Shown here piece by piece: positions 17,420 to 42,571 of a stretch of 50,338 nucleotides of DNA. The position numbers and the translations under genes were made by a program. The stretch spans positions 1-50,338 of the forward strand of contig JALSGY010000424.1 of assembly GCA_026982515.1 (NCBI GenBank), given 5' to 3'. Under the pieces are notes generated by a model that had not been told where the DNA came from, made no database searches, and saw only the letters and a list, made by a program, of their open reading frames with translations. Position 1 is the first letter of the stretch; each line of letters starts with the position of its first letter. Source of the DNA: Paracoccaceae bacterium. Lineage in GTDB: Bacteria > Pseudomonadota > Alphaproteobacteria > Rhodobacterales > Rhodobacteraceae.

Positions 17420-17502
17420 CGGGTTTCGTTTCTTGTGTCCATCCTGCCAATATAAGTTGAATTTGCCAGGGCAAAAAGGCATATCGGTCCGGTTGGATGT
17501 GA

Positions 17503-18780: not shown

Positions 18781-19455
18781 CTAATCAGGCAAAATCAGGC
18801 CGCAGACAAGCAGGTTTCCGACAATTTGCCACCGTCCGTCCGGGGGTGCATGACCGGGAAAGCGGGCAAGCCCGCCGGGAAAGGCGATCGAGAACCCGCC
18901 GGTGCTGGTGGATGCCGTGATCTCGACCGCGTCAAATCCGATCATCTCGCCGGTCAGCGGATACCGGGCCTTGTAGACGGCTTCCTTGGCGCTGAAGATC
19001 AGCTTGGCCAGCAGGGCGCGGTCGCGGGCGGGCTGGCGGTCAAGCCAGGCGCGTTCGGAGCGCGTGCAGATCGTGCCTTCCAGTTCCGCTTCCAGGGGCG
19101 TGGCGTCTTCGATGTCGATGCCGATCGCGCGCAGGTGCGTGCGGGGGGCCACGGCGGCGATGCAGGCGGTGGAACAATGGGCGATGGACCCCACCAGCCC
19201 TTCGGGCCAGACGGGCGCGCGGTCGGGGCCCTGCGGCACCGGGGCGGGGGGCAGGCCGATGTCGGCCATTGCAAGGCGCGCGGCCTGGCGCCCGGCGGCA
19301 AACTCCAGCCGCCGCCGGGGCACCGCGCGCGTCACTGCGGCGTCTTCCCCGGGATACAGCGCGCCGGCCGCAGCCGTCGGATCGGTGGCCGCGACCCCGA
19401 CACCTGGCCCCAGAAGCCCGCGCAGGGCTTCCGTGAGCGCTGCGAGATCGCTCAT
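18781..19455 (-). CDS. 4'-phosphopantetheinyl transferase (EntD/Sfp type)
   Basis: Contains FAAGRQAARLAM, GSIAHCSTACIAAV, IGIDIE and KLIFSAKEAVYKA. Its ATG overlaps the upstream NRPS-like stop codon (ATGA at 19452..19455). Confidence 0.85.
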   Translation of the reverse strand: MSDLAALTEALRGLLGPGVGVAATDPTAAAGALYPGEDAAVTRAVPRRRLEFAAGRQAARLAMADIGLPPAPVPQGPDRAPVWPEGLVGSIAHCSTACIAAVAPRTHLRAIGIDIEDATPLEAELEGTICTRSERAWLDRQPARDRALLAKLIFSAKEAVYKARYPLTGEMIGFDAVEITASTSTGGFSIAFPGGLARFPGHAPPDGRWQIVGNLLVCGLILPD

Positions 19456-22400
19456 GCGCTGCTGGACTGGCGGCGCGCGCGCATTTCGCGCCGCCGTTTC
19501 ATGGCTTCGGCGCGGGCTTCGGCTTTTTCGCCGGAAACAGTGTCTGTTTCAGGGGTTTTCGCTGGTTTTGCGCCCCCGGAAAGCTTGTCTTCCACGGTGC
19601 GGGCCAGCCCATCCAGCGTCGGAAAACGGAAGATGTCGGTGATGGAAAGCCGGTCGGCGCCCAGCTCCTTGCGAATCTCGCGATGCGCCTGCACGGCCAG
19701 CAGCGAATGGCCACCGAGATCGAAGAAGTTGTCCTTTGCGCCGATCCCGGACACCCCGAGGATGCGTGACCAGATATCCGCCACCTGCTGCATGACGGTG
19801 CCAACAGGGGCGGTGTCTTCTGTTGCCGAAGACGGCTTGCCGGCCGCGGCAGCAGCCATCGGGGCGGGCAGGGCGTTGCGGTCGACCTTCTTGTTGGGCG
19901 TCAGCGGAAAGGCGTCAAGCGTGACGAAGCGCGCCGGCAGCATGTGGGCTGGCAGGCGCGCGCCAAGATGGGCCTTCAGGTCGGCTTCGGGCACCGGGGT
20001 CTCGGCCAGCGTGTAGGCGACAAGCTGGCGCAGCCCCGGCACATCCTCGCGCAGCATCACCACCGACTGGCGCACGCCCGGATGGGTATCGAGCGCGCTT
20101 TCGATCTCGCCCAGTTCGATCCGGTAGCCGTGCAGCTTGACCTGGTCGTCGGCGCGGCCGAGAAAATCGAGCTGCCCGTCCGCGCGCCAGCGCACCAGAT
20201 CGCCGGTGCGATACAGGCGTGCGCCCTGGCTGTCGGTGAACGGGTCGTCGACAAAGCGTTCATCGGTCAGGTCGGGCCGTTGCCAGTAGCCGCGCGCCAC
20301 CCCGGCCCCGCCGATGTAAAGCTCACCCGCCATGCCAAGCGGCACCGGCGCGCGGTTTTCGTCCAGCACATAAACGCGGGTATTGGCGATCGGGCGTCCG
20401 ATCGGCGCGACGGTGTCGGTCGGGACAACCGGGCCGGTGGTCGACCAGATCGTGGTTTCGGTCGGGCCATACATGTTTTCGACATGGCCCCCGGCAAGCC
20501 CCAGCAGTTCGCGCACGAGCCCCCCCGGCAGCGCCTCGCCGCCGATCATCAGGTGGCGGACATGCGACAGCGCGTGGCGCGCCTCGTCGTTCATCACCAG
20601 CATCTGCGCCATCGAGGGCGTGCACTGCATATGGGTGACCGCGTGGCGCTGGATCTGGGCCGCGATCGAAAAGTCATCCTCGGCCGGCCCGGTTTCCTGG
20701 TTGGTGCGGCGCACCACCTCGGCCAGCGGCTTGAGGCCCTCGAGCACGGTGTCGCGCGCGATGCCGTAGTCGATCAGGCAGGCGATTTCGTCGACACCGA
20801 TGCGCTTGAGCTGTTCGGTGCGCGCCAGGCAGTCGTCAACCGTGCCAAACAGGCCCGAATCCTCGAAATAGCGCAGGAAGGCAAACTCGAGGATGGCGTC
20901 GAGCTCTTCCTCGCTCAGGATGCCGAGGTCGATATCGAAGGCGTTGTTCACGCCCTTGGGTTTCTTGAAGGCCGGGAAGACCCAGGCAAACTGCTTGATC
21001 AGCCCGGCGGCCGAGCGCAGGTAGTCCTTCATCGGCCCGCGGGCGATTTCGCGCACCGCTTCGCGGTCGGTCCCGACGAAAGTGTGCAGCATCAGCGTGA
21101 CGGTGAAGTCATCCGGGTCGTGGCCGGCCTCGCGCAGGGCGGCGTGGTAGATCCTGATCTTTTCGCCGACCTCGTCGATGCTCTGGCCAAGCAGGTGGGT
21201 CAGCACGTTGGCGCCGATCTCTCCGGCTTCGCGCCAGGTGTCGGGATTGCCGGCCGTGGTGATCCAGATCGGCAACTCTTTCGAGACCGGCCGGGGCTGG
21301 GTGAGCACCGCGTGCGGTGTGCCGTCGGCGGTCGGAAATTCCACCTCTTCGCCACGCCACAGGCGGCGCAGATCGTCGATTGCGCGATACATGGCGGGCT
21401 TGTTTTCGGGCGGCGTGTTTTCCGGGCGCAGCACGAAGTCATGCGGCTGCCAGCCCGAGGCGATGCCCAGCCCGGCCCGCCCGTTGGTCAGGTTGTCGAT
21501 CACCGCCCAGTCTTCGGCGATGCGCGCCGGGTGGTGCAGCGGGGCGACGCAGCTGCCGGCGCGCACCGCGATATTGCGCGTGATGGCCGCCACCGCCGCG
21601 CCGGTGACCGAGGGGTTGGGATAGGGGCCGCCGAACGCGTGGAAGTGCCGTTCCGGCGTCCAGACCGCGCAAAAGCCGTTCTGGTCGGCGAACCGTGCGC
21701 CATCGAGCAGCATCTTGTACTTGTCGCGCCCCTGGCCGTCGTCGTTGCCCCAGTAAAACAGGCTGAATTCCATGCCGCGCCCGGTGATGGCGTGCACCCC
21801 GGCGTTGTCGCCGGCCACCAGTGCGCGGTTTTCGTCGCTGCTGAGCACGACCTTGAAGCCGCGCGCAAGCGTCCAGAACAGCTCGAGCACCGAAATGTCG
21901 AACGACAGGCTGGTCAGGGCCAGCCAGACGCCCGGCGGGTCATGGGCGATGCGTTCATCCATGCCGGTGAAGAAATTGGCGACGTTGCGATGCTCGACCA
22001 TCACGCCCTTGGGCTTGCCGGTGGAGCCCGAGGTATAGATCAGGTAGGCCAGATCTTCGCCGGTCACGCCGCTTTGCGGGTTGATCGCCGGGGCCGAGGC
22101 GATCTGTGGCGCATCGTCAAGGCTGAGCAGTTGCGCGCCCGTTTCCGGCAGTGCATGCGCCAGGCCGGTATTGGTCACGATAACCCGGGCCCCGCTGTCT
22201 TCGGCATAAAGCGCGGTGCGGTCGGCCGGATAGGCCGGGTCCATCGGCAGGTAGGCGCCGCCGGCCTTGAGGATCGCCAGCGCCGCCACCAGCAGGTCGG
22301 TCGAGCGCGGCAGGTGCAGCCCGACGACGACCCCGGGCCTGACCCCCATGTCCTGCAGCACATGGGCGATGCGGTTGGCGCGCGCGTTCAGGGCGTCATA

Positions 22401-24080
22401 GCTCAGGCTTTCGCCTTCGAACGCCAGCGCCTCGGCCTCGGGGTTGCGGGCGACCTGCTGTTCGAAGAATTCATGAATGCAGGTGTCTGCCGGAAAGTCG
22501 CGCGCGGTGTCGTTCCAGTCTTCCAGCAGCATCCGGCGTTCGGCGTCGGGCAGGATCGGCAGGGCGCCGGGCGCCGTGTCGGGGGCCTGCACCGCCGCCT
22601 CCAGAAGATGCGTCAGCCGCGCCGCCAGGCGTTCAAGCTCGGCTGCATCGGGGCCGGTATTTGTGCTGATCAGTGTCGCTTTTGCGCCCTGAACCGCCAG
22701 GGTCAGCGCGGTGCCCGGCAGGCATCCGGCGCCCGCATCGCGCGACAGGCCGATGGTGGGCAGAACCGCCTTTTCGGCCAGGCGGGCGGGCAGGTCGCAG
22801 GCGAAACCGCCGTTGTCGAGCGCCTGGGCCAACTGTGCCGACAGCGCATCCCGGCTGGCGGCGAAACTGCTTTCGAGCGCGCCATGCACCGGAACCCAGG
22901 GGCAGACGTAATCGGGCGCATCGGGCAGGTGACAGGCCATGTCCAGCCCGTCCGTCCCTGCCATCCTGGCAAGCAGGATGGCGAGGGCGGCCCAGGCATC
23001 TTCGGCGCCGGCCCCTTCGGGCAGGGCAAAGCCGTGGCGCGGCGCATCGCCGTCACCGTTGCTGCCGAGCCGCGGCAGATCAAGCGGGGCGACCTGCTCG
23101 AGCCGGTCGCGCCAGAACGGTTCGGCACGCAGCAAAGGGGCAAGAACTGCATCGATCCGGGCCGCGTCTTCGGTGTCCGGGCTGGGCAGAACGTCGCCGG
23201 TCTGCGCCACATCGGAGGCCGGGACCGGACGGCCGAAACAGTCACTGATACGGCTTAAAACGATGTCATTCGTGCCGGTTGCCACGGTCAGGCTGTCGGC
23301 CGTGGCGGCCGTGACAGTGCCCGGCGCCTTGCCCGAAGCGGTCGGCGCGGGCACAGCGCTGTGCACCAGCCGGATTTCCCCGCCGGCCTCGATCTTGGGG
23401 CAAAGCAGCGGGTTGCGATAGTCGCCATGGTCAAGCGCACGCACCAGCCCCGCGAGGGTCTCGGCCGATTTCGTGAAATCGAGCCGTCCGCCGGCCTCGG
23501 GCCGGGCGTCGCGGCCGAAGTAGCTGCGCTGGTCCAGATCCTGGGGCGTGGCGGCCGGCGTGTCGCTGGCCAGTTCGGCCATCACCTGGCCAAAGCTGTC
23601 GATGGCGGCGCTGTAGCATTTCGTGTTGAGCGTGAGGGCGGTTTCGTCAGGGGCGATGTCAAACCGGCTCTGGGCGATGATGTCGCCTTCATCGACGCCG
23701 CCCGAAATCAGGTGCCAGGAGATGCCGTGGGTTTTCTCGCCATTGATCAGCGCCCAGACCGGCGCATTGAGACCGGCATAGCGCGGCAGCGGGCCATCGT
23801 GAAAATTGACCGCGCCGCGGGCGGCCATGTCAAGCGCGTCCTGCGGGATCAGGTCGAGATTGGCGATGGACAGGAGCCAGTCGAAATCATGGGGTTTCAG
23901 CCGTGCGGCCAGATCGGCGCCGGGGGCGAGCACCGGCAGGCCGCGGGATTTTGCCCAGTCCTGCACTTCGGCATTGCGGGTCACGACAGCGCGGATCGGA
24001 TTGTCCGCCTCCAGCAGCATTTCACCACATTGAATGACAAGGGATTCGTTGCCGATGAGGACGGAACTGAAACCGGGCAT
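19452..24080 (-). CDS. NRPS-like module: formyltransferase-like domain, degenerate condensation remnant, adenylation domain interrupted by a luciferase-like monooxygenase, PCP
   Basis: Fmt-like residues ~1-300 (VNFHDGPLPRYAG). C-to-A linker LPILPDAERRMLLEDWNDT. A motifs LAYLIYTSGSTGKPKG, SFDISVLELF, NMYGPTETT, GELYIGGAGVARGY, YRTGDLVRW, GRADDQVKLHGYRIELGEIE and PNKKVDR. An LLM insert of ~350 aa sits between A4 and A5 (MEFSLFYWGND...GIASGWQPHDF...). PCP motif FFDLGGHSL, with the Ser codon at 19704..19706. Confidence 0.9.
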   Translation of the reverse strand: MPGFSSVLIGNESLVIQCGEMLLEADNPIRAVVTRNAEVQDWAKSRGLPVLAPGADLAARLKPHDFDWLLSIANLDLIPQDALDMAARGAVNFHDGPLPRYAGLNAPVWALINGEKTHGISWHLISGGVDEGDIIAQSRFDIAPDETALTLNTKCYSAAIDSFGQVMAELASDTPAATPQDLDQRSYFGRDARPEAGGRLDFTKSAETLAGLVRALDHGDYRNPLLCPKIEAGGEIRLVHSAVPAPTASGKAPGTVTAATADSLTVATGTNDIVLSRISDCFGRPVPASDVAQTGDVLPSPDTEDAARIDAVLAPLLRAEPFWRDRLEQVAPLDLPRLGSNGDGDAPRHGFALPEGAGAEDAWAALAILLARMAGTDGLDMACHLPDAPDYVCPWVPVHGALESSFAASRDALSAQLAQALDNGGFACDLPARLAEKAVLPTIGLSRDAGAGCLPGTALTLAVQGAKATLISTNTGPDAAELERLAARLTHLLEAAVQAPDTAPGALPILPDAERRMLLEDWNDTARDFPADTCIHEFFEQQVARNPEAEALAFEGESLSYDALNARANRIAHVLQDMGVRPGVVVGLHLPRSTDLLVAALAILKAGGAYLPMDPAYPADRTALYAEDSGARVIVTNTGLAHALPETGAQLLSLDDAPQIASAPAINPQSGVTGEDLAYLIYTSGSTGKPKGVMVEHRNVANFFTGMDERIAHDPPGVWLALTSLSFDISVLELFWTLARGFKVVLSSDENRALVAGDNAGVHAITGRGMEFSLFYWGNDDGQGRDKYKMLLDGARFADQNGFCAVWTPERHFHAFGGPYPNPSVTGAAVAAITRNIAVRAGSCVAPLHHPARIAEDWAVIDNLTNGRAGLGIASGWQPHDFVLRPENTPPENKPAMYRAIDDLRRLWRGEEVEFPTADGTPHAVLTQPRPVSKELPIWITTAGNPDTWREAGEIGANVLTHLLGQSIDEVGEKIRIYHAALREAGHDPDDFTVTLMLHTFVGTDREAVREIARGPMKDYLRSAAGLIKQFAWVFPAFKKPKGVNNAFDIDLGILSEEELDAILEFAFLRYFEDSGLFGTVDDCLARTEQLKRIGVDEIACLIDYGIARDTVLEGLKPLAEVVRRTNQETGPAEDDFSIAAQIQRHAVTHMQCTPSMAQMLVMNDEARHALSHVRHLMIGGEALPGGLVRELLGLAGGHVENMYGPTETTIWSTTGPVVPTDTVAPIGRPIANTRVYVLDENRAPVPLGMAGELYIGGAGVARGYWQRPDLTDERFVDDPFTDSQGARLYRTGDLVRWRADGQLDFLGRADDQVKLHGYRIELGEIESALDTHPGVRQSVVMLREDVPGLRQLVAYTLAETPVPEADLKAHLGARLPAHMLPARFVTLDAFPLTPNKKVDRNALPAPMAAAAAGKPSSATEDTAPVGTVMQQVADIWSRILGVSGIGAKDNFFDLGGHSLLAVQAHREIRKELGADRLSITDIFRFPTLDGLARTVEDKLSGGAKPAKTPETDTVSGEKAEARAEAMKRRREMRARRQSSSA

Positions 24081-24083
24081 GCG

Positions 24084-25112
24084 TTACTCTCCAGGTTGAG
24101 GGGGCAGAGGTCGGGCGTCGCGCTTCGCCGGTGAAAGGAGCCTGCGCCGCAGGGCGGCCAGATCGTGGCGCGCCATGGAGCGCAGGAATTGGGGGGACAC
24201 TTCGCGTTTCTTGCGGGTCAGCGTTGCACGCAGCCAGCACAGGCCGCCACCGGTCAGGTGGGCAAGCGTCGCGAGGCCGGCATAAAGGGCGCCGTGGTTC
24301 TTGGCGAAGTAGTGCCAGCGCGAGTCGTACCAGTAGTCGGGCACCCGCGACCAGGTTTTCATTCCGGTGGACACCGAACCGATATGGGTCACGACACTGT
24401 CGCGCAGAAAAATGATCTCGTGGCCAGCAAGGCGGACGCGGCGGCACAGGTCGGTTTCCTCGAAATAGAGAAAGAAGGTTTCATCGAACAGGCCCACCTC
24501 ATCGAGCACGCTCTGGCGCATCATCAGGCTGGCCCCGGCCAGCCAGTCGACAGACTGCCCGTCGCGCGGTGTTTCGATCGGCACCCGGTGGCGGGCCAGC
24601 AGGCGGCTGACCGGCCCGAAGCGGATCGCGCTTTCGAATTCGCTGAGGATCGAGGGGAAGCGGAAAGCCGAGGTGTGCGCCACCCCGTCCTCGCCGTGGA
24701 TGTAGCTGCCGGCGAAGGCGGTTTCGGGATGGGCAACCAGGTGGTTCAGCAAAACGCGGATCGCCTCCGGCTCGGGGAAGGCATCCGAGTTTTGCACATA
24801 AATGAAATCGGGGCGCGATCCGTCACTGAGTCCGGCCCGGATGCCGACGTTGTTGCCGGCCCCGAAGCCACCGTTGTGACCGGATTGCAGAAGGCGCACC
24901 CGGTCGTTCCTGTCCCAGCCCGCGTCCGCGATGTGATTGCGGATCGTTTCATCGGAACCGTCCCGGCTGTCGTTGTCGACGATGACGATTTCACCGGCGA
25001 TGCCGTCCATCGCCGCCAATGCGGCTTCGGTTGCGCGCAGGGTCATCGGCGCCGTGCGGTAGTTCAGGATGACGGTCAGAAGTGTTGGATCCGACGTGGT
25101 ACTGGTCTGCAT
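24084..25112 (-). CDS. Family-2 glycosyltransferase embedded between the PKS and NRPS-like genes
   Basis: ATG at 25110..25112 (MQTSTTSDPTLLTVILNYRT...IVIVDNDSRDGSDE...) lies 1 nt after the PKS stop. The longer track ORF (to 25187) would overlap the PKS. The stop is 3 nt before the NRPS-like start. Confidence 0.85.
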   Translation of the reverse strand: MQTSTTSDPTLLTVILNYRTAPMTLRATEAALAAMDGIAGEIVIVDNDSRDGSDETIRNHIADAGWDRNDRVRLLQSGHNGGFGAGNNVGIRAGLSDGSRPDFIYVQNSDAFPEPEAIRVLLNHLVAHPETAFAGSYIHGEDGVAHTSAFRFPSILSEFESAIRFGPVSRLLARHRVPIETPRDGQSVDWLAGASLMMRQSVLDEVGLFDETFFLYFEETDLCRRVRLAGHEIIFLRDSVVTHIGSVSTGMKTWSRVPDYWYDSRWHYFAKNHGALYAGLATLAHLTGGGLCWLRATLTRKKREVSPQFLRSMARHDLAALRRRLLSPAKRDARPLPPQPGE

Positions 25113-25113
25113 A

Positions 25114-28100
25114 CTATTCTGCTGCCTTGATTGTTTTTGGTGGGATGCTGGTTTCGCCAGCCTCCCATGCCCGTTCTGCCGCTTCAAGCCGGTGTTTCAT
25201 TCGTGCGGCGAGAACCCGCACATTGGGTTCAAGCACCATGGAATCGTGGTCGCCCGGCACTTCGAATACCTCGATGGCATGGGCCCATCTGGTCCAGCCG
25301 TTGTCCGGAAGAAGGTAGTGGCGATGCTTGTCGACAAGCCGCCCCGGCGCCACTTCCCACTGGCCGATCTGGGGCGGGCGGATCAGGGCAAGCGGCCCGG
25401 ACCAGGGCATGACCTTGTAGGCCCCCACGCTTTCGAGGAAAGCATCCTGGATGGCCGCATTGTGGAATTCATGCGCTGCCTCGGTTTCTTCGTCATGGCC
25501 CTGGCGTTTGCCCAGTTCCCAGGCGATGCGGTTCCTTGCCCAGGTGGTCAGATAGCCAAGGCCCTGACGGCGCAGGTTGATCCAGTTGATCATGATGCGG
25601 TCGCGCCGCGACAGCGGCGGGCGCACCGGCAGGGGGGTGTCGAGCATGATCAGCTCCGACACGGTTTCGCCGGCGGCCGTCAGCTGTTGGGCAATCTCGT
25701 AGGCAATGATGCCGCCGCCGGAAAACCCGCCCAGCATGTAGGGGCCATGCGGCCGGACCTGGCGCATTTCGGCGATATAGTCGCGCGCCGCCTCGACCAC
25801 CGAGCGGTGCGGCTCCTCATCGCCGTAAAGCCCGCGCGCCTGCAGCCCGTAAAACGGCCGGTCGGCGCCCAGAAGATGCGCAAGATGGCGCAGGTTCAGC
25901 ACGTTGCCGAACATGCCGGCCACCAGGAAGAACGGGGTTTTCGGCCCCCCTTCGCCGGCATGCATCGGCACCAGGTGGGTGAAGCGGCGTTCGGTCCTGG
26001 CCACAGCCGGGGCCGGGGCGCCGTCTTCTTCGTCGGTGGCCACACCGCGCGCGGCGATCAGCTCGGCGCATTTGCGGATCGTCGGGGCTTCGAACAGCAC
26101 CGAAATCGGAAAGTCGACCTGCCAGGTCTTGCGGATCTGTGCAAACAGCCGCACCGCGATCAGGGAATGTCCGCCAAGGTCGAAGAAACTGTCTTCGACG
26201 CCGACCTGATCGACCCCGAGCAGGTCCTGCCAGAAGCCGGCCAGCCGGGATTCGATCGCATTTTCCGGGGCAACGTAGTCGGCATCGAGCTCGGGGCGCT
26301 GGAACTTCTGCTCGCTGCCCTGGTTGTCGGCCACGCTTTCGCCGGCCTGGGCGGCCAGCCCGGCGAGATCGAGCGACGACACGATCACCTGGGGCAGATC
26401 GGTGCTCAGGGCGCGCAGGAACAGGTCAGCCCCCTCGGCCGGGCGAATACCCTGGGTCAGGTTGTGGCGCAGGCGCTCTTCGGCGGGCGACAGCGGGCGC
26501 GCGGCCTCGTTGTCGGGCAGGGTGGCGACAGGGTTGTCGGCCGGGGCGGCCGCGAATTGCGCCGCGCTTTCCAGGCGGCGGATCGAAAACCCGCGGATCT
26601 CGACGCAGACGGTGCCGTCGGGGGCCGCGATGGTGACATCGAAACTTGCGGTTTCGGCGCCGGCCTCGTTTTCGCCGCTGTTGCGCACCCAGCTGACGAC
26701 CTCGGCCGGCAGGGGGCGGAAGACCCGGACCGAGCGGTAGGAAACCGGCACCCACAGGTGGGTCGGGCGATAGCCGGCGATCAGCTCCATCGCCCAGCCG
26801 GTGGCGATATCCATCAGCCCGGGGTGCAGCAGGCAGCCGGTGTCATTCCCGGCCCCGGGCAGGGCAAGCCGGGCCAGGCCCTCGCCCTGACCCAGGGCGG
26901 TTTCACGCAGCACATGCCACTGGGCGCCGAAGTTCAGCTGTGCTTCCTGGGGCGCGCTCAGCCATTGGCCCGGCGGCGCGGTGACCGGAGCGCCGCAGCG
27001 CGCGGCGATGGCCGCGGGGTCGATCGGGTCGGGGGGCGTCTGCGGCAGCAGCGAAAGACTGGCCTGGGCGTTCTGTTCGCGGTCCGCGCCGGCGCCGCTT
27101 TCAACGCTCAGGTCATAGCCGGTGTCGCTGCGTGAAAGCGTCAGGCGGATGTCACGCTCTTGTCCGTCTTCCACGGCCAGCGGGCGCAGGAAATAGAGGT
27201 CGCGGATCTCGAATGTCTGTGGCTCGCCCTGTGCGCGCAGGGCCTCGGCGGCCAGTTCGATATACCCGGTGCCCGGCAACAGCGCGTCGCCCGCGCGGGT
27301 CCGGTGCTGGTCGAGAAACCAGCGCCCGTCCGCCCGCCAGCGCGCCGTGAACAGCCGGTTGCCGGCGCCGTCGAAGCTGGCGTCGTCCAGCATCGGCTCG
27401 CCCGCCGCCTCGACCGGCGGGGGCGGGGTGGACCCGGTGCGCACCTGCATGGCATCGGCGGCCATGCCGACATCGGCCCAGATGCCCCAGTCGATGGCCA
27501 GAACCCGGGTCTTGCCGCCGGCGCGCGCCCTGGCGTAGGCGTTGAGATATTCGTTGGCCGCGACATAGTCGACCTGCCCCGGCGGGGCGGTGACGGTGGA
27601 GGTCGAGGAAAACAGCACCAGCCAGTCGAGCGCGCCATCGGGGAAGAGCTCATCGAGCACCTGGGTGCCGTGGATCTTGGGGGCGAAGACATCTTCGATC
27701 CCGGTCATCGACTTGGTCATGATCAGCCCGTCTTCGATCAGCCCGGCGGCATGGATCACGCCATTGACCGGCCCCCAGCGCCCCTCGATCTCGGCGCGGG
27801 CGGCCCGCATGTCCTCGACATTGCTGACATCGGCGGCAAGACACATGACCTGCCCGCCGGCCTCTTCCAGCGCCTGCACCGCCCGGATGCGCCGCGCCAG
27901 GCTGTCGCCGGGGGCGGTATTGCGCAGGATCTGCTCCCATTTGTCCCGGTCGGGCAGGGCGTTGCGCGACAAGAGCACGATACGCGCCGAGACCTTGCGG
28001 ATCAGGGTTTCGGCCAGGGTCAGCCCGATGCCGCCGAACCCGCCGGTGATCAGGTAGACGCCTTCTTCGCGCAGCGGTGGCACCAGGGTGTCCGGGGCGG

Positions 28101-31100
28101 CGATTTCCTGTTGCCGCCAGCCCAGTTCGAACCGCTTGTCGCCGCGCAGGGCCACGGTGGCGGTGGCCGGCGGGGCGAGCAGATCTTCGAGCAGCCGTTC
28201 GGCCAGCGCGGCCATCTGCGGATCGGGGCCGGTGCGTTTGCGGCGCGCGGGCTCCTGCGGCAGCTCCAGGTCGATCAGCGAACAGCTGAAGCCCGGAAAC
28301 TCGCGCGGGATGACCCGCGCCGGTCCGGCGATCGTGGCCTTTTCCGGATAGGCCAGCCCCTCATCGCGCACCTGTTGCGCCCCGGTGGTCAGCACGCTCA
28401 GGTGCAGCGGCATGGCCAACCCCTCGTCGCCGATGGCCTGGGCCAGAAACAGCAGGCTGTAAAACCCCTGTTCGAGATTGCGGTGGAAAAAGCTGCTGCC
28501 GGGGCGGAAGGTTTCCTTGCGGGTGGCCAGCCAGCCGTGGACGATCCGGCTCGGGGCCATGTCGCGTTCCACGAGGTCGCGGATCAGCGCGTCATAGCTT
28601 TCGCGCCCGCGCTCGGGGGCGATGATGTAACCGTCGTCGCCCATGCGCGCGAAAGTGTCGCCGGCGCGCACGGTGATCACCGGGTGCCCGGCCGCGCGCA
28701 GCCGTTCGGTGATGGCCCCGGTCAGCCCGGCGTCATCGGCAAAGACCAGCCAGGTTTCGCGCGGGGCCTCTGACAGGTCACCGCTTGTGTCGATGTCGCA
28801 GGCGGCATAGGTCGGGGTCCAGGCCGGGCGATAGCCCCAGCGCGACAGGTCATCCTCGCGCATCAGCCAGCGATTGTCGGTTTCGGCGGGTTTGCCCGGC
28901 TCGATGAAATAGGGCGCACGCTGGAAGGCGTAGCCGGGCAGCGGCACCCGCAGGCGCCGCGCGTCGCCCCAGTATTGTGCCCAGTCAAAGCGCCCCCCCA
29001 TGGCCCAGAGCCGCCCGAGCATGGCCAGGAAATAGGCATCATCGCCGATTTCGTCTTTCGGGTGGCGCAGGCTGGACATCACCTGGTTGGCGGTGGCATC
29101 GCCATGCTGGCCGGTCAGCGCGGCCAGCGCCTTGCCGGGGCCGACCTCGAGGAAGATGCGCCCGGGGGTCTGTGCCAGTGTCGCGATACAGTCGGCGAAA
29201 TGCACGGTGCCGCGCAGGTGGCCGACCCAGTAGTCGGGGTCGGTGGCTTCGGCCTCGGTGATGAACGCGCCGCTGCGGTTCGAGGTGAAGGGGATGCGCG
29301 GGGCGTGCAGCTCGATCGAGCGCAGATAGTCGCCGAAATCCTTCAGGATCGGTTCGAGCATGCGCGAATGGGCGGCAATGTCGATCGGGATGCGCTGGCA
29401 GTCGATGTCACGTTCTTTCAGCACCGCTTCCAGCGCGTCCAGCGCATCCTGGGCGCCGGTGGCGACGCTCAGCCCCGGCGCGTTGACCGCCCCGAGGTCC
29501 AGGTCGTCGCCCAGCAGCGGCTTCAGGTCTTCGGCGGGCAGGGCCACCGACAGCATGCCGCCGGCAGGCACCGTATCAAACAGGCGACCGCGCAGGTGCA
29601 CCAGCCCGATGCAGTCTTCGAACGACATGACCCCGGCCACGCAGGCGGCGGTGTTTTCCCCCATCGAATGGCCGACCAGGGCTGCCGGGCTTACCCCCCA
29701 GCTCATCCACAGCTGCGCCAGCGCATATTCGACGATCATGATCAGCGGCAATTGCACCGACGGCTGCTTGAGCCGGTCTTCGGCCTCGGCCCTGGCGCCG
29801 GGTTCGGGCAGCCAGATTGCGCGGATGTCATAGTCGAGCTTCGGCTGCAGGATTTCCAGGCCGCGGTCCATCCATTCGGCAAAGACCGGCTCGGTCTCGT
29901 AGAGGTCGCGCGCCATGCCGGCATATTGCGCCCCGCCGCCGGGGAACATGAACACGACCTCCGGGTCGTCGCCGACCACCGTGTGGGTGAAAACGCGGCG
30001 CGGGTCGTTTTCCTCGAGCAGGCGGGCGGCTTCTTCGTGGGTCTCGGCCACGACGACGCGGCGCCTTTCGAATTCGCGCCGGCCTTCCTTCAGGGTCCAG
30101 GCAATGTCGGCCAGGGGCTGTTCGGGATGGGCGCGCAGATGGGCGGCCAGCCGGGCGGCGTTGCCGTCGAGCGCGCCCTTGCTGCGCCCCGAAATGCACA
30201 GCAGCTGGAACGGCCAGTCCGAGGCTTCGGAGGCGACCCGTTCGGGGGCTTCTTCCAGAACGGCATGGGCATTGGTGCCCCCGACCCCGAGCGAGTTCAC
30301 CCCGGCCCGGCGCGGCCCCTTGTGCGATTGCCAGTCGCTCAGCCGGTCGTTGACGCGAAACGGGCTGTGCGCGAAGTCGATTGCCGGGTTCGGCTTTTCG
30401 TAGCCGAGCGAGGGCGGGATCTGGCGCCTGTGCAGCGACAGCGCGGTCTTGATCAGGCTGGCAACCCCGGCCGCGGTGTCGAGATGGCCGATGTTGGTCT
30501 TGACCGAGCCAAGCCGGCAATAGCCGGTTTCATCGGTGGTTTCGCCAAACGCCTGGGTGAGGGCGGCCACCTCGATCGGGTCGCCCAGGTAGGTGCCGGT
30601 GCCGTGGCACTCGACATAGTCGATGGTGTCGGCCGGCGTGCCGGCCATGCTGAGCGCTTCGGAAATGGCGGCGGCCTGGCCGTCGACCGACGGGGCAAGA
30701 TAGCCGGCCTTGGCGGCGCCATCGTTGTTGACGGCGGTGCCCTTGATCACGGCCCAGATATGGTCGCCGTCGGCGATGGCATCGGCCAGCCGACGCAGCA
30801 CCACGACACCCGCGCCCGAGCCGAACACCGTGCCCTGGGCGCGGTGATCGAACGCGTGGCAATGGCCGTCGGGCGACAGCACTTCGCCTTCCTTGTAGAT
30901 ATAGCCGCGCCCCTGCGGCAGTTCGATTGTCACCCCGCCGGCCAGCGCGATGTCGCATTCGCCGGTCATCAGCGCCTGGGCCGCGTAATGGGTGGCCACC
31001 AGCGAGGTCGAACACGCGGTCTGCAGGTTGATGCTCGGGCCCTTGAGGTCAAGGATGTGGCTGGCCCGCGTCGACAGGAAGTCCTTGTCGTTGCCGGTGT

Positions 31101-31563
31101 GGCGCAGCAGGAACATGCCCACGTCTTCAACCAGGTCCGGGTTCGAGCAGACGTTGAAATAAAAGTAGCTGCCCATGCCGCAGCCGGCAAACACCCCGAT
31201 CGGCCCCCTGGCCTTTTCCGGCGGGTGGCCGGCGTTTTCCAGCGCTTCCCAGGCCACCTCCAGGAACTGGCGGTGCTGCGGGTCCATGATCGCGGCTTCT
31301 TTCGGCGACAGCCCGAAGAATTCGGCATCAAAGGTTTCGAACCCTTCCAGCGGGGCGGCGGCGGGCACATAGTCGGGGCGGTTCAGCAGGTGCGGCGCCT
31401 CGCCGTTTTCCAGCAGCTCCTCGCGGCTGAACTGGCGGATCGATTCGATGCCGTCGCGCAGGTTGGCCCAGTATTGGTCTATCGAGCCCGCGCCGGGCAG
31501 ATGTGCGGCCATGCCGACGATGGCGATGTCGGTGTCGGCGCTGCGATGTGTCGTGTCATTCAT
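25114..31563 (-). CDS. Type I polyketide synthase, KS-AT-KR-DH-carrier protein-TE
   Basis: KS: QTACSTSLV (Cys184), ECHGTGT, KTNIGH. AT: GHSMGE (Ser633). KR: VYLITGGFGGIGL (aa ~1170). PS-DH: LDQHRTRAGDALLPGTGY (aa ~1420). Carrier: FFDLGGHSLIAV (Ser1800, codon 26164..26166). TE: MLGGFSGGG (aa ~1948) and VPGDHDSM. Confidence 0.9.
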   Translation of the reverse strand: MNDTTHRSADTDIAIVGMAAHLPGAGSIDQYWANLRDGIESIRQFSREELLENGEAPHLLNRPDYVPAAAPLEGFETFDAEFFGLSPKEAAIMDPQHRQFLEVAWEALENAGHPPEKARGPIGVFAGCGMGSYFYFNVCSNPDLVEDVGMFLLRHTGNDKDFLSTRASHILDLKGPSINLQTACSTSLVATHYAAQALMTGECDIALAGGVTIELPQGRGYIYKEGEVLSPDGHCHAFDHRAQGTVFGSGAGVVVLRRLADAIADGDHIWAVIKGTAVNNDGAAKAGYLAPSVDGQAAAISEALSMAGTPADTIDYVECHGTGTYLGDPIEVAALTQAFGETTDETGYCRLGSVKTNIGHLDTAAGVASLIKTALSLHRRQIPPSLGYEKPNPAIDFAHSPFRVNDRLSDWQSHKGPRRAGVNSLGVGGTNAHAVLEEAPERVASEASDWPFQLLCISGRSKGALDGNAARLAAHLRAHPEQPLADIAWTLKEGRREFERRRVVVAETHEEAARLLEENDPRRVFTHTVVGDDPEVVFMFPGGGAQYAGMARDLYETEPVFAEWMDRGLEILQPKLDYDIRAIWLPEPGARAEAEDRLKQPSVQLPLIMIVEYALAQLWMSWGVSPAALVGHSMGENTAACVAGVMSFEDCIGLVHLRGRLFDTVPAGGMLSVALPAEDLKPLLGDDLDLGAVNAPGLSVATGAQDALDALEAVLKERDIDCQRIPIDIAAHSRMLEPILKDFGDYLRSIELHAPRIPFTSNRSGAFITEAEATDPDYWVGHLRGTVHFADCIATLAQTPGRIFLEVGPGKALAALTGQHGDATANQVMSSLRHPKDEIGDDAYFLAMLGRLWAMGGRFDWAQYWGDARRLRVPLPGYAFQRAPYFIEPGKPAETDNRWLMREDDLSRWGYRPAWTPTYAACDIDTSGDLSEAPRETWLVFADDAGLTGAITERLRAAGHPVITVRAGDTFARMGDDGYIIAPERGRESYDALIRDLVERDMAPSRIVHGWLATRKETFRPGSSFFHRNLEQGFYSLLFLAQAIGDEGLAMPLHLSVLTTGAQQVRDEGLAYPEKATIAGPARVIPREFPGFSCSLIDLELPQEPARRKRTGPDPQMAALAERLLEDLLAPPATATVALRGDKRFELGWRQQEIAAPDTLVPPLREEGVYLITGGFGGIGLTLAETLIRKVSARIVLLSRNALPDRDKWEQILRNTAPGDSLARRIRAVQALEEAGGQVMCLAADVSNVEDMRAARAEIEGRWGPVNGVIHAAGLIEDGLIMTKSMTGIEDVFAPKIHGTQVLDELFPDGALDWLVLFSSTSTVTAPPGQVDYVAANEYLNAYARARAGGKTRVLAIDWGIWADVGMAADAMQVRTGSTPPPPVEAAGEPMLDDASFDGAGNRLFTARWRADGRWFLDQHRTRAGDALLPGTGYIELAAEALRAQGEPQTFEIRDLYFLRPLAVEDGQERDIRLTLSRSDTGYDLSVESGAGADREQNAQASLSLLPQTPPDPIDPAAIAARCGAPVTAPPGQWLSAPQEAQLNFGAQWHVLRETALGQGEGLARLALPGAGNDTGCLLHPGLMDIATGWAMELIAGYRPTHLWVPVSYRSVRVFRPLPAEVVSWVRNSGENEAGAETASFDVTIAAPDGTVCVEIRGFSIRRLESAAQFAAAPADNPVATLPDNEAARPLSPAEERLRHNLTQGIRPAEGADLFLRALSTDLPQVIVSSLDLAGLAAQAGESVADNQGSEQKFQRPELDADYVAPENAIESRLAGFWQDLLGVDQVGVEDSFFDLGGHSLIAVRLFAQIRKTWQVDFPISVLFEAPTIRKCAELIAARGVATDEEDGAPAPAVARTERRFTHLVPMHAGEGGPKTPFFLVAGMFGNVLNLRHLAHLLGADRPFYGLQARGLYGDEEPHRSVVEAARDYIAEMRQVRPHGPYMLGGFSGGGIIAYEIAQQLTAAGETVSELIMLDTPLPVRPPLSRRDRIMINWINLRRQGLGYLTTWARNRIAWELGKRQGHDEETEAAHEFHNAAIQDAFLESVGAYKVMPWSGPLALIRPPQIGQWEVAPGRLVDKHRHYLLPDNGWTRWAHAIEVFEVPGDHDSMVLEPNVRVLAARMKHRLEAAERAWEAGETSIPPKTIKAAE

Positions 31564-32081
31564 TGAAATGCGAAGTCCCTATCGCATCAAGTGCGGGTTT
31601 CTGAGAGTTGAAAGACTCGAAAAAAATCCAGAGATAATCAAAAAGACCAACCTTTTTCTACCGGGGGCAATTCGCCGGGTCAAACAGCGGCATTGTTGCG
31701 TATCGGGCAGTAGCATGGGACAGGCCATTCTCAAATGCGGCAGCCCGGAAAATTGCCCTGATGATCACGATCCGGCGTCAATGTTTCGTGAGCGGGCGGA
31801 TTGGTTCGGTTCCCGGCAAGATCATTCCGCGCTTTTCTGGTGAACCTGCCCGGGGTCTTGCCCGGGTGGATGGCCCGTGAGCGCGCCTTTACCCCTTGTT
31901 TTCAGGGTGAAAAAACGGGTGATCGTGGCGGTTTCCGAGAAAAAACAGGGCCATTTCCGGTTTTTTGCCCCGCTCAGCAGCGCCAATTGCGGCAGCATTG
32001 CGTTGCAATCATGGCCCCAATGGTGCAGTTTGGCCGAGGATGAGTTTCCCGGCTATTTCCGGGATATTGAAGGAGTGGGTA
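31564..32081. promoter_or_regulatory. 518-bp divergent intergenic region between the PKS operon and the VPLPA-CTERM gene
   Basis: No credible ORF. An AT-rich core lies at ~31610..31660 (gaaagactcgaaaaaaatccagagataatcaaaaagacc). The RBS GAAGGAG at 32069..32075 precedes the cargo ATG. Confidence 0.45.
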
Positions 32082-32840
32082 ATGGGGTTGAAGTTTTTGA
32101 AAGCCTGCGTGGCTTGCGCAATGGTTTATCTGCCCGCCGTCGGGACGGCGCAGGCGGCGACGGTCAATATTGTCCGGGTTGCCGATAATCCTCAGGAAAC
32201 GGTTTACGGGATTCGTGACAACACCGGGACAGACGGGGTTGATCTGGATGGTGCGATCTTTACGGCGACCTATGCCGATGGAACAAGCGAAGAGATCGTC
32301 TGGAACGCCTTGCGCACATTCAACTACAGCATCGATGGCGAAGCGGCCGGGACGGACACATATGTCTACATGAGCTGGGACGGGTTCGAAATGACGACGA
32401 CCCGCCTGCTGACCTCGCTTCTCATCCAGCTTGCTCCGGCCAGCTCGGTTTTTGACACGACGTTCATCTTCGATCCCGATCCGGCCTCTACGCCAGGGTC
32501 CAGCTTTGGCTATCCGTTCGAGCTTTACAGTGCCTATTCCGGTCTGCAGGGCAGCATCACGGCGACCTATTCGGGGATCGTGAACATGGCCGGCGATGTG
32601 GCGCGGGGCGATCTGTTCACCGACATGCTCGTCGACTTTTCGGGTCTGTCGACCGGTGGAATTCTTGGCGCCGTGAGCTTCAGGTCCGACATGGACACCC
32701 TGCGGTATGCGGGCGATCTGACGCCGATTTCCCCGGTGCCGCTTCCGGCCGGTTTCTGGCTTTTGCTGGCCGGCATGGGCGGTTTCGTGTTGAGCGGTCG
32801 CATGGCGCGGCGCGGCTCTGCGGCCCGGGTTTCCGCCTGA
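32082..32840 (+). CDS. Secreted protein with a C-terminal VPLPA-CTERM exosortase sorting signal
   Basis: Signal peptide MGLKFLKACVACAMVYLPAVGTAQA. The C-terminus reads ...PISP-VPLPA-GFWLLLAGMGGFVLSG-RMARRG (motif, TM helix, basic cluster). VPLPA is encoded at 32735..32749. I recognise no family for the ~200-aa mature domain. Confidence 0.85.
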   Translation: MGLKFLKACVACAMVYLPAVGTAQAATVNIVRVADNPQETVYGIRDNTGTDGVDLDGAIFTATYADGTSEEIVWNALRTFNYSIDGEAAGTDTYVYMSWDGFEMTTTRLLTSLLIQLAPASSVFDTTFIFDPDPASTPGSSFGYPFELYSAYSGLQGSITATYSGIVNMAGDVARGDLFTDMLVDFSGLSTGGILGAVSFRSDMDTLRYAGDLTPISPVPLPAGFWLLLAGMGGFVLSGRMARRGSAARVSA

Positions 32841-32995: not shown

Positions 32996-33841
32996 GTGTC
33001 GCAGAAGAAACGGCCTGAAAAATCGGCAGACATGGTCATTGGCTGCCTGTCAAACAACGCCGACATCCTGTCCGCCAACCTGATGCTGTCTCCGGCTGTT
33101 CGCTCGGGCGCGCTCAAGCTTGTCGTGGAAAAAAACCCGACAAGCGCCGCCACCGGCTACAACCGCATTCTTGACCGAACAGATGCTCCGATCGTTATCC
33201 TGGCCCACCATGATGTTTTCCTGCCGGATGGCTGGGAGCAGCTTCTTGCCCGCCGGATTGCGGAGGTTGAAGCGGTCGACCCGGACTGGGGGATCATTGC
33301 CCCCTACGGGATCGATGAGCATGGCACGGGGTGGGGCCCGGTCTGGTCGTCTTCGATCGGCCAGGTTGTCGGCCGCGTCGCCACCGAACCTGTCGCAATC
33401 AAGAGCAGCGACGAGTTGCTGATCGTCCTGCGGCGCCACGAAGGGCTGCGCTTTGATGAAGGCATGGCGCATTTTCATTTTTACGGGCTGGATATCGTGC
33501 AGACGGCCTGGGCCCTGGGCCATGGCGCCTGGAACGTGCCCCTGCCGCTTGTTCATAATGACAGGTTCAAGGGCGACCTGGGAGAAGACTATGCGCAGGG
33601 CTATCATTTCGTGCGCAAGAAATGGCGCGCGCAATTGCCCCTGCATTCTCCGACTGCAAAGGTTTCGTGGCACGGGCTGCATCTGCGCGGTGTCAGGAAA
33701 CGGATGCGTGAAAGCGTTGAACACAGGAAAGCCATCGCCGTTGCGGCCGAAGTTGATCCGCGCATTCATGCAGAACGCTGCGGCTGGGAAACGCTCGGCG
33801 GGGTGCCGGCGCCGGCCATCCGGCCAGCGCTGGCCTCCTGA
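32996..33841 (+). CDS. Hypothetical protein, GT-A (GT2)-like glycosyltransferase candidate
   Basis: Coding-like composition, whereas the antisense ORF 33050..33919 is Arg/Pro-rich. Segments ATGYNRILDRTDAPIVILAHHDVFLPDGW and SSDELLIVLRR resemble small GT-A enzymes. The start is GTG 32996 or ATG 33032. Confidence 0.5.
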   Translation: MSQKKRPEKSADMVIGCLSNNADILSANLMLSPAVRSGALKLVVEKNPTSAATGYNRILDRTDAPIVILAHHDVFLPDGWEQLLARRIAEVEAVDPDWGIIAPYGIDEHGTGWGPVWSSSIGQVVGRVATEPVAIKSSDELLIVLRRHEGLRFDEGMAHFHFYGLDIVQTAWALGHGAWNVPLPLVHNDRFKGDLGEDYAQGYHFVRKKWRAQLPLHSPTAKVSWHGLHLRGVRKRMRESVEHRKAIAVAAEVDPRIHAERCGWETLGGVPAPAIRPALAS

Positions 33842-39037: not shown

Positions 39038-39084
39038 CGGGGGCTTGCGGAGGATCCGGTGGCCGGGGCGATGGGAGAGTGGAC

Positions 39085-42564: not shown

Positions 42565-42571
42565 GCCGCGC

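Follow-up and report, generated by a model that had tools for sequence, protein, structure and literature searches.

Introduction

A four-gene cluster encoding a non-ribosomal peptide synthetase (NRPS)-like protein, a polyketide synthase (PKS), a glycosyltransferase and a 4'-phosphopantetheinyl transferase (PPTase) is present in 28 of 57 roseobacter genomes, and its product is unidentified (PMC4337385, PMC5014874). Both papers credit its first description to Martens et al. 2007; a 2024 genome paper describes it as being without similarity to known clusters, and later papers keep calling it uncharacterised. Here we analyse a copy of this operon on a 50,338-nucleotide stretch of DNA from a Paracoccaceae bacterium (assembly GCA_026982515.1, contig JALSGY010000424.1, positions 1 to 50,338; hereafter the window), in which it occupies positions 18781-31563 of the minus strand and is divergent from the gene for a small VPLPA-CTERM protein, the predicted cargo of an exosortase (XrtD) that is encoded in the same window. 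We find that the usual genomic partner of the operon is a Wzx/Wzy/Wzz-type surface-polysaccharide locus and not an exosortase system.

This outcome differs from that expected by an earlier, sequence-only reading of the window, which had put forward the operon and the cargo gene as one functional unit, in which a glycosylated amino-lipid-like product of the operon could serve as the acceptor or anchor of exosortase substrates. That reading pointed to an AMP-forming ligase in XrtA-type loci, which is consistent with the NCBIfam description of TIGR03098 as 'acyl-CoA ligase (AMP-forming), exosortase A system-associated'. The operon is among the most widespread orphan biosynthetic clusters of marine roseobacters, being found in about half of the genomes, and its product has gone without identification since 2007. 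A literature search returned no relevant paper on XrtD or VPLPA-CTERM.

Results

The window carries the orphan roseobacter operon

The four window genes are the orthologue of the orphan PKS/glycosyltransferase/NRPS/PPTase cluster of the Roseobacter group, here located on a RepA/ParAB plasmid of the 'xrtD plus exopolysaccharide' kind. In the order from PKS to PPTase their junctions read TAG-n-ATG, TAA-cgc-ATG and ATGA, ranging from a 3-nt gap to a 4-nt overlap; the genes are translationally coupled, and junctions this tight mean that they form one operon. Both the domains and the junctions therefore confirm the operon of PKS, GT2 glycosyltransferase, NRPS-like protein and PPTase that had been proposed from the sequence. 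According to Pfam, the PKS (25114..31563, minus strand, as for the whole operon) is a single-module type I enzyme with the domain order KS-AT-KR-DH-carrier-TE. The GT2 glycosyltransferase (24084..25112; Pfam Glycos_transf_2, E = 4e-14) is contained in an open reading frame (ORF) spanning 24084-25187, the probable true ATG being at 25112, 1 nt past the PKS stop; no transmembrane (TM) segment is predicted in it and no PDB relative was found by sequence. The third gene (19452..24080) encodes an NRPS-like loading protein of 1542 aa with the Pfam/NCBIfam domain order formyltransferase-A(MOx)-PCP, and the last (18781..19455; Pfam 4PPT_N, ACPS) encodes an Sfp/EntD-type PPTase whose start overlaps the NRPS stop (ATGA).

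To place this copy among its relatives, we scanned one genome per species with the NRPS-like protein as query, which returned at least 563 relatives, and analysed the best-scoring 80 species-representative loci with flanks of up to 10 kb. These best 80 loci come from Rhodobacterales and from six Hydrogenophaga, and their NRPS proteins are full-length and 56-64% identical to that of the window, with GT2 and PKS genes alongside. The GT2 gene is present in all 80, the PKS gene in 72 and the PPTase gene in 69, most absences falling at contig ends. The copy of Leisingera sp. JC1, the strain of PMC5014874, is one of the 80 (L072). In the six Hydrogenophaga (Betaproteobacteria) genomes (L012, L015, L016, L021, L025 and L029) the operon is complete; since their PKS sequences nest inside the Rhodobacterales tree, this distribution indicates horizontal transfer of the operon out of roseobacters into Hydrogenophaga.

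A conserved accessory gene, which we call unk333 (16481..17482, minus strand), encodes a predicted lipoprotein with the lipobox LLLGAC and the SGNH-like motifs GHSLVG and DNIH. Sequence searches of Pfam, NCBIfam and PDB gave no match for it, and the motifs are suggestive of an SGNH-type esterase or acyltransferase. Of the 80 loci, 29 have a homologue in their flanks, in 21 of them directly after the PPTase gene on the same strand, and unk333 may be a fifth gene of the operon's pathway.

The operon is embedded in surface-polysaccharide loci

We clustered the neighbouring ORFs of the operon loci and annotated the recurrent families with Pfam. At least one polysaccharide assembly or export marker was found in the flanks of 71 of the 80 loci, and in 57 of the 60 loci with full flanks. 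Wzx flippase genes were found close to the operon in 49 of 80 loci. Where enough upstream sequence was available, Wzx directly precedes the PKS gene on the same strand and ends no more than 600 bp before its start in half of the cases (34 of 68). A Wzz-like gene directly follows the PPTase gene in 24 loci, which are distinct from the 21 where an unk333 homologue takes that place. Other recurrent neighbours are a CpsD/CapB tyrosine kinase, a Wzy/O-antigen-ligase-like protein, an initiating sugar transferase, WecB/TagA and GT4 glycosyltransferases. The same embedding is seen on annotated plasmids of Parasedimentitalea marina, Paracoccus liaowanqingii, Ruegeria conchae and Ruegeria sp. SCSIO 43209. 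By our own estimate, which takes the genomes as several megabases in size, the adjacency to Wzx and Wzz genes is far beyond chance. The operon together with the polysaccharide locus is the best-supported functional unit.

Linkage to xrtD is confined to one clade and a distant variant

The window xrtD gene (793..2397, plus strand) encodes a VPLPA-CTERM-specific exosortase that scores 642 bits against the curated TIGR04152 cut-off of 400 and carries a fused EpsI domain (TIGR02914, 133 bits, residues 354-530), both of which identify it as a member of the XrtD family. It is 60-67% identical to the annotated xrtD genes on 24 Rhodobacterales plasmids.

From the side of the operon, the exosortase is a rare neighbour. 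A motif scan combined with tblastn for VPLPA-type C-termini and xrtD in the flanks of the 80 loci found such a C-terminus in only three (two Neptunicoccus species and one Amylibacter metagenome-assembled genome) and xrtD in one (Loktanella sp. 5RATIMAR09, at the flank edge), and the flanks of the six Hydrogenophaga loci contain neither of the two. The co-occurrence that the sequence-only reading had put forward as a check is thus limited to 4 of 80 loci, all within one PKS clade. In a neighbour-joining tree of the KS-AT region, all xrtD- or VPLPA-linked loci fall into this single clade of 17 terminals, which also holds the window, two Ruegeria plasmids, a Tateyamaria plasmid, a Litoreibacter-like plasmid contig and a chromosomal contig (L088), and which is still monophyletic when the tree is rooted on the Aliiroseovarius variant described below. 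Among the species-representative loci, XrtD or VPLPA-CTERM genes occur within the flanks of 4 of 12 members of the clade and of none of the 68 others (Fisher p = 3e-4, a value that describes a clade-level association and not independent events, the sequences being related). When the set of XrtD-island markers is widened to XrtD, either VPLPA-CTERM family, the PKD protein, asparagine synthase and UbiA/GtrA/FAD oxidoreductase, they are found in 12 of 17 clade loci and in 1 of 66 outside, the latter a lone UbiA in Hydrogenophaga. As a matter of distribution, then, in one operon clade that includes the window the locus has joined xrtD/VPLPA-CTERM polysaccharide islands, which are often plasmid-borne.

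From the side of xrtD, the operon is likewise absent from most loci. A tblastn search of 72,556 plasmids found full-length XrtD on 24, all from Rhodobacterales, and an assembly line on three of these (R. conchae, Ruegeria sp. SCSIO 43209 and Aliiroseovarius sp. M344); a fourth, from Tateyamaria omphalii, holds PKS-homologous DNA with no coding sequence (CDS) annotated, and the operon is missing from the remaining 20. The plasmids pTB2 of Roseobacter denitrificans and p1 of Jannaschia sp. CCS1 carry xrtD, one or two small VPLPA-CTERM genes and glycosyltransferases, with no synthase, and PKS, NRPS and PPTase genes were found in none of 37 metagenomic xrtD loci with flanks of up to 10 kb. Because pTB2, p1 and other xrtD plasmids carry no synthase, XrtD evidently works without the operon in cis; the exosortase link, which is supported in part, is dispensable in cis to the majority of operons and of xrtD systems. 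Because most xrtD loci and plasmids are without the operon, its product cannot be shown to be a general XrtD acceptor, and the broad form of the earlier proposal is not supported.

On the Tateyamaria omphalii plasmid pDOK1-4-6 (L085), the PKS-homologous DNA at 48457-51346 has 72% nucleotide identity, and xrtD at 41838-43450 is split into two CDSs annotated as exosortase and EpsI; both synthase and exosortase appear to be decaying on this plasmid. A second family of small VPLPA-CTERM proteins, with hardly any relation to the window's cargo, is encoded on the plasmids of R. conchae and Ruegeria sp. SCSIO 43209, 1.4-2 kb from the operon and adjoining an initiating sugar transferase gene. On the R. 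conchae plasmid (L083, 28410-29048), WP_260026569.1 is annotated as 'MprA protease, GlyGly-CTERM protein-sorting domain-containing form'; the protein ends in AAVPLPSAALLLMGGLAGFGLIRQRQRRRVT, a VPLPA-type exosortase signal, and its gene lies 1.4 kb upstream of the PKS gene and 3.7 kb from xrtD, and the annotation is probably wrong.

A small beta-sandwich cargo family recurs beside the PKS

The cargo gene (32082..32840, plus strand) encodes the only protein within the 50-kb window that has a VPLPA-type C-terminus, as the sequence-only reading had noted. Its ATG at 32082 is preceded by GGAG 7 nt upstream. The protein begins with the signal peptide MGLKFLKACVACAMVYLPAVGTAQA, continues with a passenger of about 190 aa that is predicted to form a beta-sandwich, and ends in ...SPVPLPAGFWLLLAGMGGFVLSGRMARRG..., comprising the VPLPA motif, a TM helix and an Arg-rich tail; it scores 28.4 bits against the TIGR03370 cut-off of 25.35. 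Both this score and the presence of the cognate xrtD gene at 793-2397 assign it to the VPLPA-CTERM proteins. An AlphaFold model (pLDDT 88) is all-beta plus a C-terminal helix, and a Foldseek search of the model against PDB returned nothing below E = 0.05, neither a lectin nor a carbohydrate-binding module nor an enzyme.

The region between the PKS and cargo genes (31564..32081) is divergent and measures exactly the 518 bp previously reported. No match to the sigma-70 consensus was found in it, and it shares just short patches with the equivalent regions of L088 and L090, with no regulator site callable.

Among the nine resolved contexts, a cargo homologue stands directly beside the PKS gene in six, in two orientations: in the window, L088 and L090 the two genes diverge, and in three Neptunicoccus/Amylibacter loci (L017, L019 and L022) the homologue lies 267 bp upstream of the PKS and points the same way. 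L088 is a chromosomal contig on which the cargo side is occupied by housekeeping genes instead of polysaccharide genes. In the Litoreibacter-like xrtD/exopolysaccharide (EPS) plasmid (L093), about 13 kb separate the PKS from the cargo homologue, which is part of the EPS block; in L091 it sits at an unrelated chromosomal site, and the L086 context ends at a contig edge. In the window and L093 the cargo gene heads the same co-directional block, consisting of genes for a GT2_5-like protein, an epimerase, a GT4, a deacetylase, a 10-TM protein and a methyltransferase, and its primary linkage in these two islands is therefore to the EPS block. A small beta-sandwich VPLPA-CTERM family is, in sum, recurrently found beside the PKS in the xrtD-linked clade. 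The juxtaposition on which the sequence-only reading relied is accordingly recurrent, and for this cargo family tighter than chance, while being restricted to one clade plus one distant variant.

In another of these contexts (L087, 2132-4155), a 65%-identical cargo homologue has a GT4 gene on one side and, on the other, an ORF of 84 aa that matches ACPS (PPTase) weakly; PKS and NRPS DNA were undetectable around it, and the arrangement may be the scar of an operon deletion. Many operons have RTX proteins nearby, which we considered as cargo homologues and rejected, tblastn finding cargo homologues in only 3 of 82 loci.

Across 78 cargo homologues, about 45 are VPLPA/PEP-CTERM proteins of about 250 aa. 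Some 30 others, of 385-428 aa, fuse the passenger (window positions 32082-32650) to Hint_2 (PF13403), as in Paracoccus aminophilus, P. liaowanqingii and P. sanguinis, and one fuses it to RTX repeats. Because the same passenger occurs with VPLPA-CTERM, Hint_2 or RTX parts, the module uses alternative devices for export or anchoring.

The distant variant (L132) is found on plasmid NZ_CP081154.1 of Aliiroseovarius sp. M344, where seven genes at 13505-33512 lie between nos and nir denitrification genes. They encode, in order, an F-A(MOx)-PCP protein, a KS-AT-KR-DH-ACP-C-A-PCP-TE protein, an esterase, a small ORF product, a 144-aa VPLPA-CTERM protein, an 815-aa TPR protein and XrtD. The first of these is 41% identical to its window counterpart and has the same specificity residues; the second protein possesses a condensation domain, unlike the window NRPS-like protein, and its PKS module is no nearer to any one clade of the four-gene operon than to the others. 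The assembly line lies 1.4 kb from the VPLPA-CTERM gene and, since no polysaccharide genes surround it, a shared EPS island cannot account for the juxtaposition. We found no second copy among plasmids and one partial relative in the protein database, on a 5.7-kb contig. The variant, a singleton, is a compact candidate 'synthase plus exosortase' island and the strongest single argument for a functional unit of synthase and exosortase.

The assembly line is predicted to make a small acyl unit

The NRPS-like protein contains Formyl_trans_N/C, an AMP-binding domain split by a monooxygenase, and PP-binding. Adenylation motifs were located for A3 (at 684), A4 (FDISVLE, at 727) and A5 (NMYGPTE, at 1202), and the PCP motif GGHSL at 1455. 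The inserted enzyme is a MupA/Atu3671 luciferase-like monooxygenase (TIGR04020, 487 bits, cut-off 244) that is situated between A4 and A5 and is followed by HMQCTPS, LMIGGEA and A5 in the form NMYGPTETTIW. The 1542-aa protein has no condensation domain, as judged by the lack of a PF00668 hit, and in this it departs from a canonical elongation module. It scores 214 bits against TIGR03098, the family of exosortase-A-system acyl-CoA ligases, which has a cut-off of 592, and we read this match as generic adenylation-domain similarity only. Using GrsA numbering, we derived the specificity code DILQMGMIWK; since it resembles the glycine code DILQLGLIWK, glycine is the likely substrate of the A domain. 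Among solved structures, the F domain is nearest to the ArnA UDP-Ara4N formyltransferase (82 bits, as against 28 bits for the LgrA F domain), and it is also close to other sugar N-formyltransferases.

A motif search of the window PKS found the elements of a modular type I condensing module. The KS triad is intact (Cys motif TACSTS, HGTGT and NIGH), the AT has GHSMG with a FabD-like AAHS that points to malonyl, the KR has GGFGGIG, the carrier has a PCP-like GGHSL and the TE has GFSGG. The DH motif is shifted by one residue (HRTRAGDALLP), which makes DH activity uncertain. The TE is closest to NRPS/PKS TE domains, with a weaker match to the Pks13 TE (42 bits). The PKS has a single module and no ER domain, and its KR precedes the DH.

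With one glycine-type A domain and a single KS-AT-KR-DH module, the collinear product would be a C4-sized formyl-amino-enoyl (or hydroxy) acyl unit, unless the PKS is iterative; the domains thus predict something other than the glycosylated amino-lipid suggested earlier. An order of loading followed by extension is supported by the Aliiroseovarius variant, whose genes are collinear, with the loading protein first and then the KS.

Further features of the window and of related islands

The window resembles part of a plasmid, with genes for replication initiator protein A (8678-9937, minus strand), ParA (10048-11505, plus strand) and ParB (11599-12720, plus strand). Nearly all remaining genes are devoted to surface-glycan biosynthesis, and the glycan set includes several GT2 and GT4 glycosyltransferases and a WecB/TagA glycosyltransferase. 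A PLSDB search found no plasmid with high identity to the window, the best match having about 75% nucleotide identity.

On the xrtD side, a UbiA-family prenyltransferase resembling decaprenyl-phosphate phosphoribosyltransferase (2424..3326, plus strand; PRK08238, 422 bits) follows the exosortase gene. The match covers profile positions 191-480 only, the N-terminal HAD part of its relatives being apparently absent. Its homologues in a second plasmid locus (L084) and in L093 measure 476-479 aa and have GtrA, an FAD oxidoreductase and a short-chain dehydrogenase/reductase encoded downstream, and this set (L084, 19081-22995; L093, 17570-20732) resembles the DprE1/DprE2-like route from decaprenyl-phospho-ribose to arabinose. 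In the window just the 300-aa UbiA part is left, adjoining a GT4 fragment (3364-4032), and a decaprenyl-phospho-arabinose-like pathway looks degraded here. A secreted protein of about 1050 aa (12815-15988, minus strand) adjoins parB and gave no Pfam hit; the equivalently placed gene on Jannaschia sp. CCS1 plasmid p1 (L134, 24590-27769) is annotated as a right-handed parallel beta-helix repeat protein, and homologues also occur in three metagenomic xrtD loci. This protein is another conserved passenger of xrtD plasmids. Between unk333 and the operon lies a GT4 glycosyltransferase gene (17503..18759, plus strand; Pfam Glycos_transf_1, E = 6e-20).

The EPS block after the cargo gene, on the plus strand, opens with a Glyco_tranf_2_5-like gene (32996..33841), which was assigned by homology to L093 (55% identity over 91% to the gene after the cargo homologue there) and has no Pfam match with E < 0.01. 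It continues with an NAD-dependent sugar epimerase/dehydratase (34053..35072; Pfam Epimerase, E = 4e-53; same position in L093), a GT4 glycosyltransferase (35088..36308; Pfam Glycos_transf_1, E = 4e-37) that has a homologue in 49 of 82 loci, and a polysaccharide deacetylase homologue (36199..37287), which tblastn aligns at 58% identity over 100% of the deacetylase of the Ruegeria plasmid L084. A minus-strand ORF at 36262-37002, the longest and with high third-position GC content (GC3), as favoured by a simple caller, was rejected as spurious, the real gene being the plus-strand deacetylase homologue. Next come p524, a membrane protein with about 10 TM segments that is conserved in xrtD islands (37424..39037; 61% identical to the 524-aa protein of L093), a class I SAM methyltransferase (38935..39996; Pfam Methyltransf_11) and a Wzx-type oligosaccharide flippase (40080..41591; Pfam Polysacc_synt_3, E = 2e-46).

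On the minus strand there follow a GT2 glycosyltransferase (41596..42732; Pfam Glycos_transf_2) and the Wzy/O-antigen-ligase-like membrane protein p504 (42572..44116; 55% identical to the 504-aa protein of L093); members of the p504 family match Pfam Wzy_C, and the window gene is masked by a 575-aa plus-strand ORF. The plus strand then encodes a PKD-domain protein that serves as an xrtD-island marker (44289..46265; Pfam PKD), with homologues adjoining asnB and xrtD in L084, L085 and L013, and a glutamine-hydrolysing asparagine synthase (46341..48392; TIGR01536, 489 bits, cut-off 267), which reaches 581 bits against the XrtA/PEP-CTERM amidotransferase model TIGR03108 and thus stays under its cut-off of 817.

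Discussion

We consider that the window operon is best explained as an orthologue of the orphan roseobacter cluster that makes a glycine-derived acyl decoration for a surface polysaccharide, a reading to which we assign a probability of roughly 60%. Given the Wzx/Wzy context, the invariant GT2 and the unk333 lipoprotein, the acyl unit is most likely a substituent of a surface-polysaccharide sugar. In this scheme the PPTase would prime two carrier domains, and the F-A(MOx)-PCP protein would load glycine, with N-formylation and/or alpha-oxidation of the glycine. The KS-AT-KR-DH module would then add one malonate, reduce and dehydrate to give a small carrier-bound formyl-amino-enoyl unit, which would be attached to a sugar of a lipid-linked repeat or polymer by the GT2, the SGNH-like lipoprotein and the TE, the last perhaps in the role of a transferase. 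Finally, the decorated repeat would be flipped by Wzx and polymerised by Wzy/Wzz.

Several points weigh against this explanation. Both the product and its attachment to a glycan are deduced from domains and neighbourhood only, and the operon GT2 has neither a TM segment nor a solved relative. The order of KR before DH resembles that of iterative PUFA (polyunsaturated fatty acid)/enediyne-type synthases, and by this analogy a long-chain, lipid-like product may arise by iteration. The 80 loci are the top scorers among at least 563 and are thereby skewed toward relatives of the window, and the search for xrtD around them covered flanks of at most 10 kb. Moreover, a shared polysaccharide context leaves two arrangements unexplained, namely L088, where cargo and PKS genes are divergent neighbours without polysaccharide genes on the cargo side, and the Aliiroseovarius variant, where the assembly line abuts the VPLPA-CTERM, TPR and xrtD genes without polysaccharide genes. 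Given these two loci, we reject pure hitch-hiking in EPS islands as a complete explanation of the adjacency of cargo and PKS.

The alternative that survives best, which we nevertheless regard as unlikely, is that the operon yields a diffusible secondary metabolite, for example a signal, a siderophore-like compound or an antibiotic, and that the polysaccharide genes and the cargo are incidental passengers of the island. Papers based on antiSMASH list the operon as an orphan NRPS/PKS biosynthetic cluster, a TE domain normally frees its product, and most of the 12 loci of the xrtD-linked clade that were checked adjoin plasmid replication genes, on plasmids or short contigs, settings in which accessory genes tend to gather. 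Passenger status is difficult to reconcile with a Wzx gene that directly and co-directionally precedes the PKS in half of the loci, with a Wzz-like gene that follows the operon in 24, and with a GT2 that is invariant inside it; in addition, the clustered neighbour families include no conserved transporter, regulator or TonB-type gene.

A second alternative, to which we give rather little credence, makes the cargo the partner of the modified polymer, its beta-sandwich binding, organising or trimming the decorated polysaccharide, with XrtD as one of several interchangeable routes to the surface. Such a role would suit a passenger that carries a VPLPA-CTERM tail in about 45 proteins, Hint_2 in about 30 and RTX in one, that heads the EPS block in the window and L093, and whose confident all-beta sandwich model shows a fold common in carbohydrate-binding modules; the lack of any significant fold match to a lectin, a carbohydrate-binding module or an enzyme, and the presence of at least one homologue (L091) in an unrelated chromosomal context, argue against it.

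The least probable of the three is the acceptor model itself, according to which the operon product is a lipid or glycolipid acceptor or anchor for the XrtD-mediated transfer of VPLPA-CTERM cargo and the whole forms one machine at least in the clade: it draws on the cargo beside the PKS in six of nine contexts and two orientations, on plasmids shared by xrtD and assembly line in Ruegeria sp. SCSIO 43209, R. conchae and Aliiroseovarius (with a remnant in Tateyamaria), on the Aliiroseovarius variant as a second, independent juxtaposition without polysaccharide genes and on the ligase and carrier-protein genes that XrtA systems carry of their own (NCBIfam description of TIGR03098), and it has against it the absence of XrtD and VPLPA-CTERM from the neighbourhood of all 68 operon loci outside one clade, the six Hydrogenophaga included, 37 metagenomic xrtD loci without a synthase and 20 of 24 xrtD plasmids without any, a collinear product that is a C4-sized acyl unit and not a membrane anchor, and the Litoreibacter-like plasmid, whose cargo lies about 13 kb from the PKS inside the EPS block.

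What stands of the proposed functional unit of operon and cargo is hence a lineage-specific island linkage, with the cargo beside the PKS in six of nine contexts, and what falls is any general linkage; the product as a general acceptor is not supported, the operon being absent from all 37 metagenomic xrtD loci and an assembly line or remnant being present on just 4 of 24 xrtD plasmids. In the xrtD-linked clade, cargo and operon probably contribute to the same surface layer. It is a similarly slim prospect that in this clade, and independently in Aliiroseovarius, a moiety made by the assembly line, free or glycan-borne, is attached to VPLPA-CTERM substrates, or modifies them, via XrtD.

With surface-polysaccharide decoration as the preferred reading, the Wzx/Wzy/Wzz neighbours redirect the search for the product from culture extracts to the surface polysaccharide. 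The operon cannot be the general source of an XrtD acceptor; ties to xrtD and to a particular family of cargo proteins nevertheless recur in a single clade and in a distant variant, and the xrtD-linked clade and the Aliiroseovarius strains are thus the right places to ask whether carrier-protein chemistry touches exosortase substrates. If true, an assembly-line moiety attached by XrtD would be the first handle on the acceptor of any exosortase.

Comparison with known systems

The closest described system is the NRPS/PKS cluster of the Roseobacter group, which has the same four genes in one operon as the window. PMC4337385, PMC5014874 and the 2024 genome paper treat this cluster as one for a secondary metabolite and make no mention of Wzx/Wzy/Wzz or of an exosortase. 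The window copy belongs to the one clade that is found in xrtD islands.

A second system for comparison is provided by the XrtA/PEP-CTERM EPS loci (Haft, TIGR03098/TIGR03108), with their AMP-forming ligase, acyl carrier protein, decarboxylase and amidotransferase. These loci and the window island have in common an exosortase, a cargo, EPS genes, an amidotransferase of the asparagine-synthase type and carrier-protein chemistry. In contrast to XrtA loci, the exosortase of the window is XrtD, the adenylating enzyme is a 1542-aa NRPS-like protein that falls below the TIGR03098 cut-off, and carrier-protein genes are missing from most xrtD loci.

At the level of the enzymes, the window protein resembles the F-A-PCP unit of LgrA from the linear gramicidin synthetase in that a formyltransferase is fused N-terminally to an A-PCP loading unit; it differs in that its F domain is nearer to ArnA (82 versus 28 bits) and that its downstream partner is a PKS, not an NRPS. 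MtaG and MelG, of myxothiazol and melithiazol biosynthesis, have a monooxygenase embedded in a glycine-activating A domain, which alpha-hydroxylates the glycine; MtaG, with the order C-A(MOx)-PCP-TE, is a terminal module and forms an amide. As in MtaG and MelG, the window protein has its luciferase-like monooxygenase between A4 and A5 together with a glycine-type code; unlike MtaG, it has no C domain, carries an N-terminal formyltransferase and would act in loading before the KS, a role that the gene order of the Aliiroseovarius variant supports.

Finally, the plasmids pTB2 and p1 share with the window replication initiator protein A, ParA, ParB, xrtD and one or two small VPLPA-CTERM genes, and plasmids of this type also share with it many glycosyltransferases and the beta-helix protein of about 1050 aa that adjoins parB. 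What sets the window apart from them is the PKS/NRPS operon, which is missing from the pTB2/p1-type plasmids and present in the window, the two Ruegeria plasmids and the Litoreibacter-like contig.

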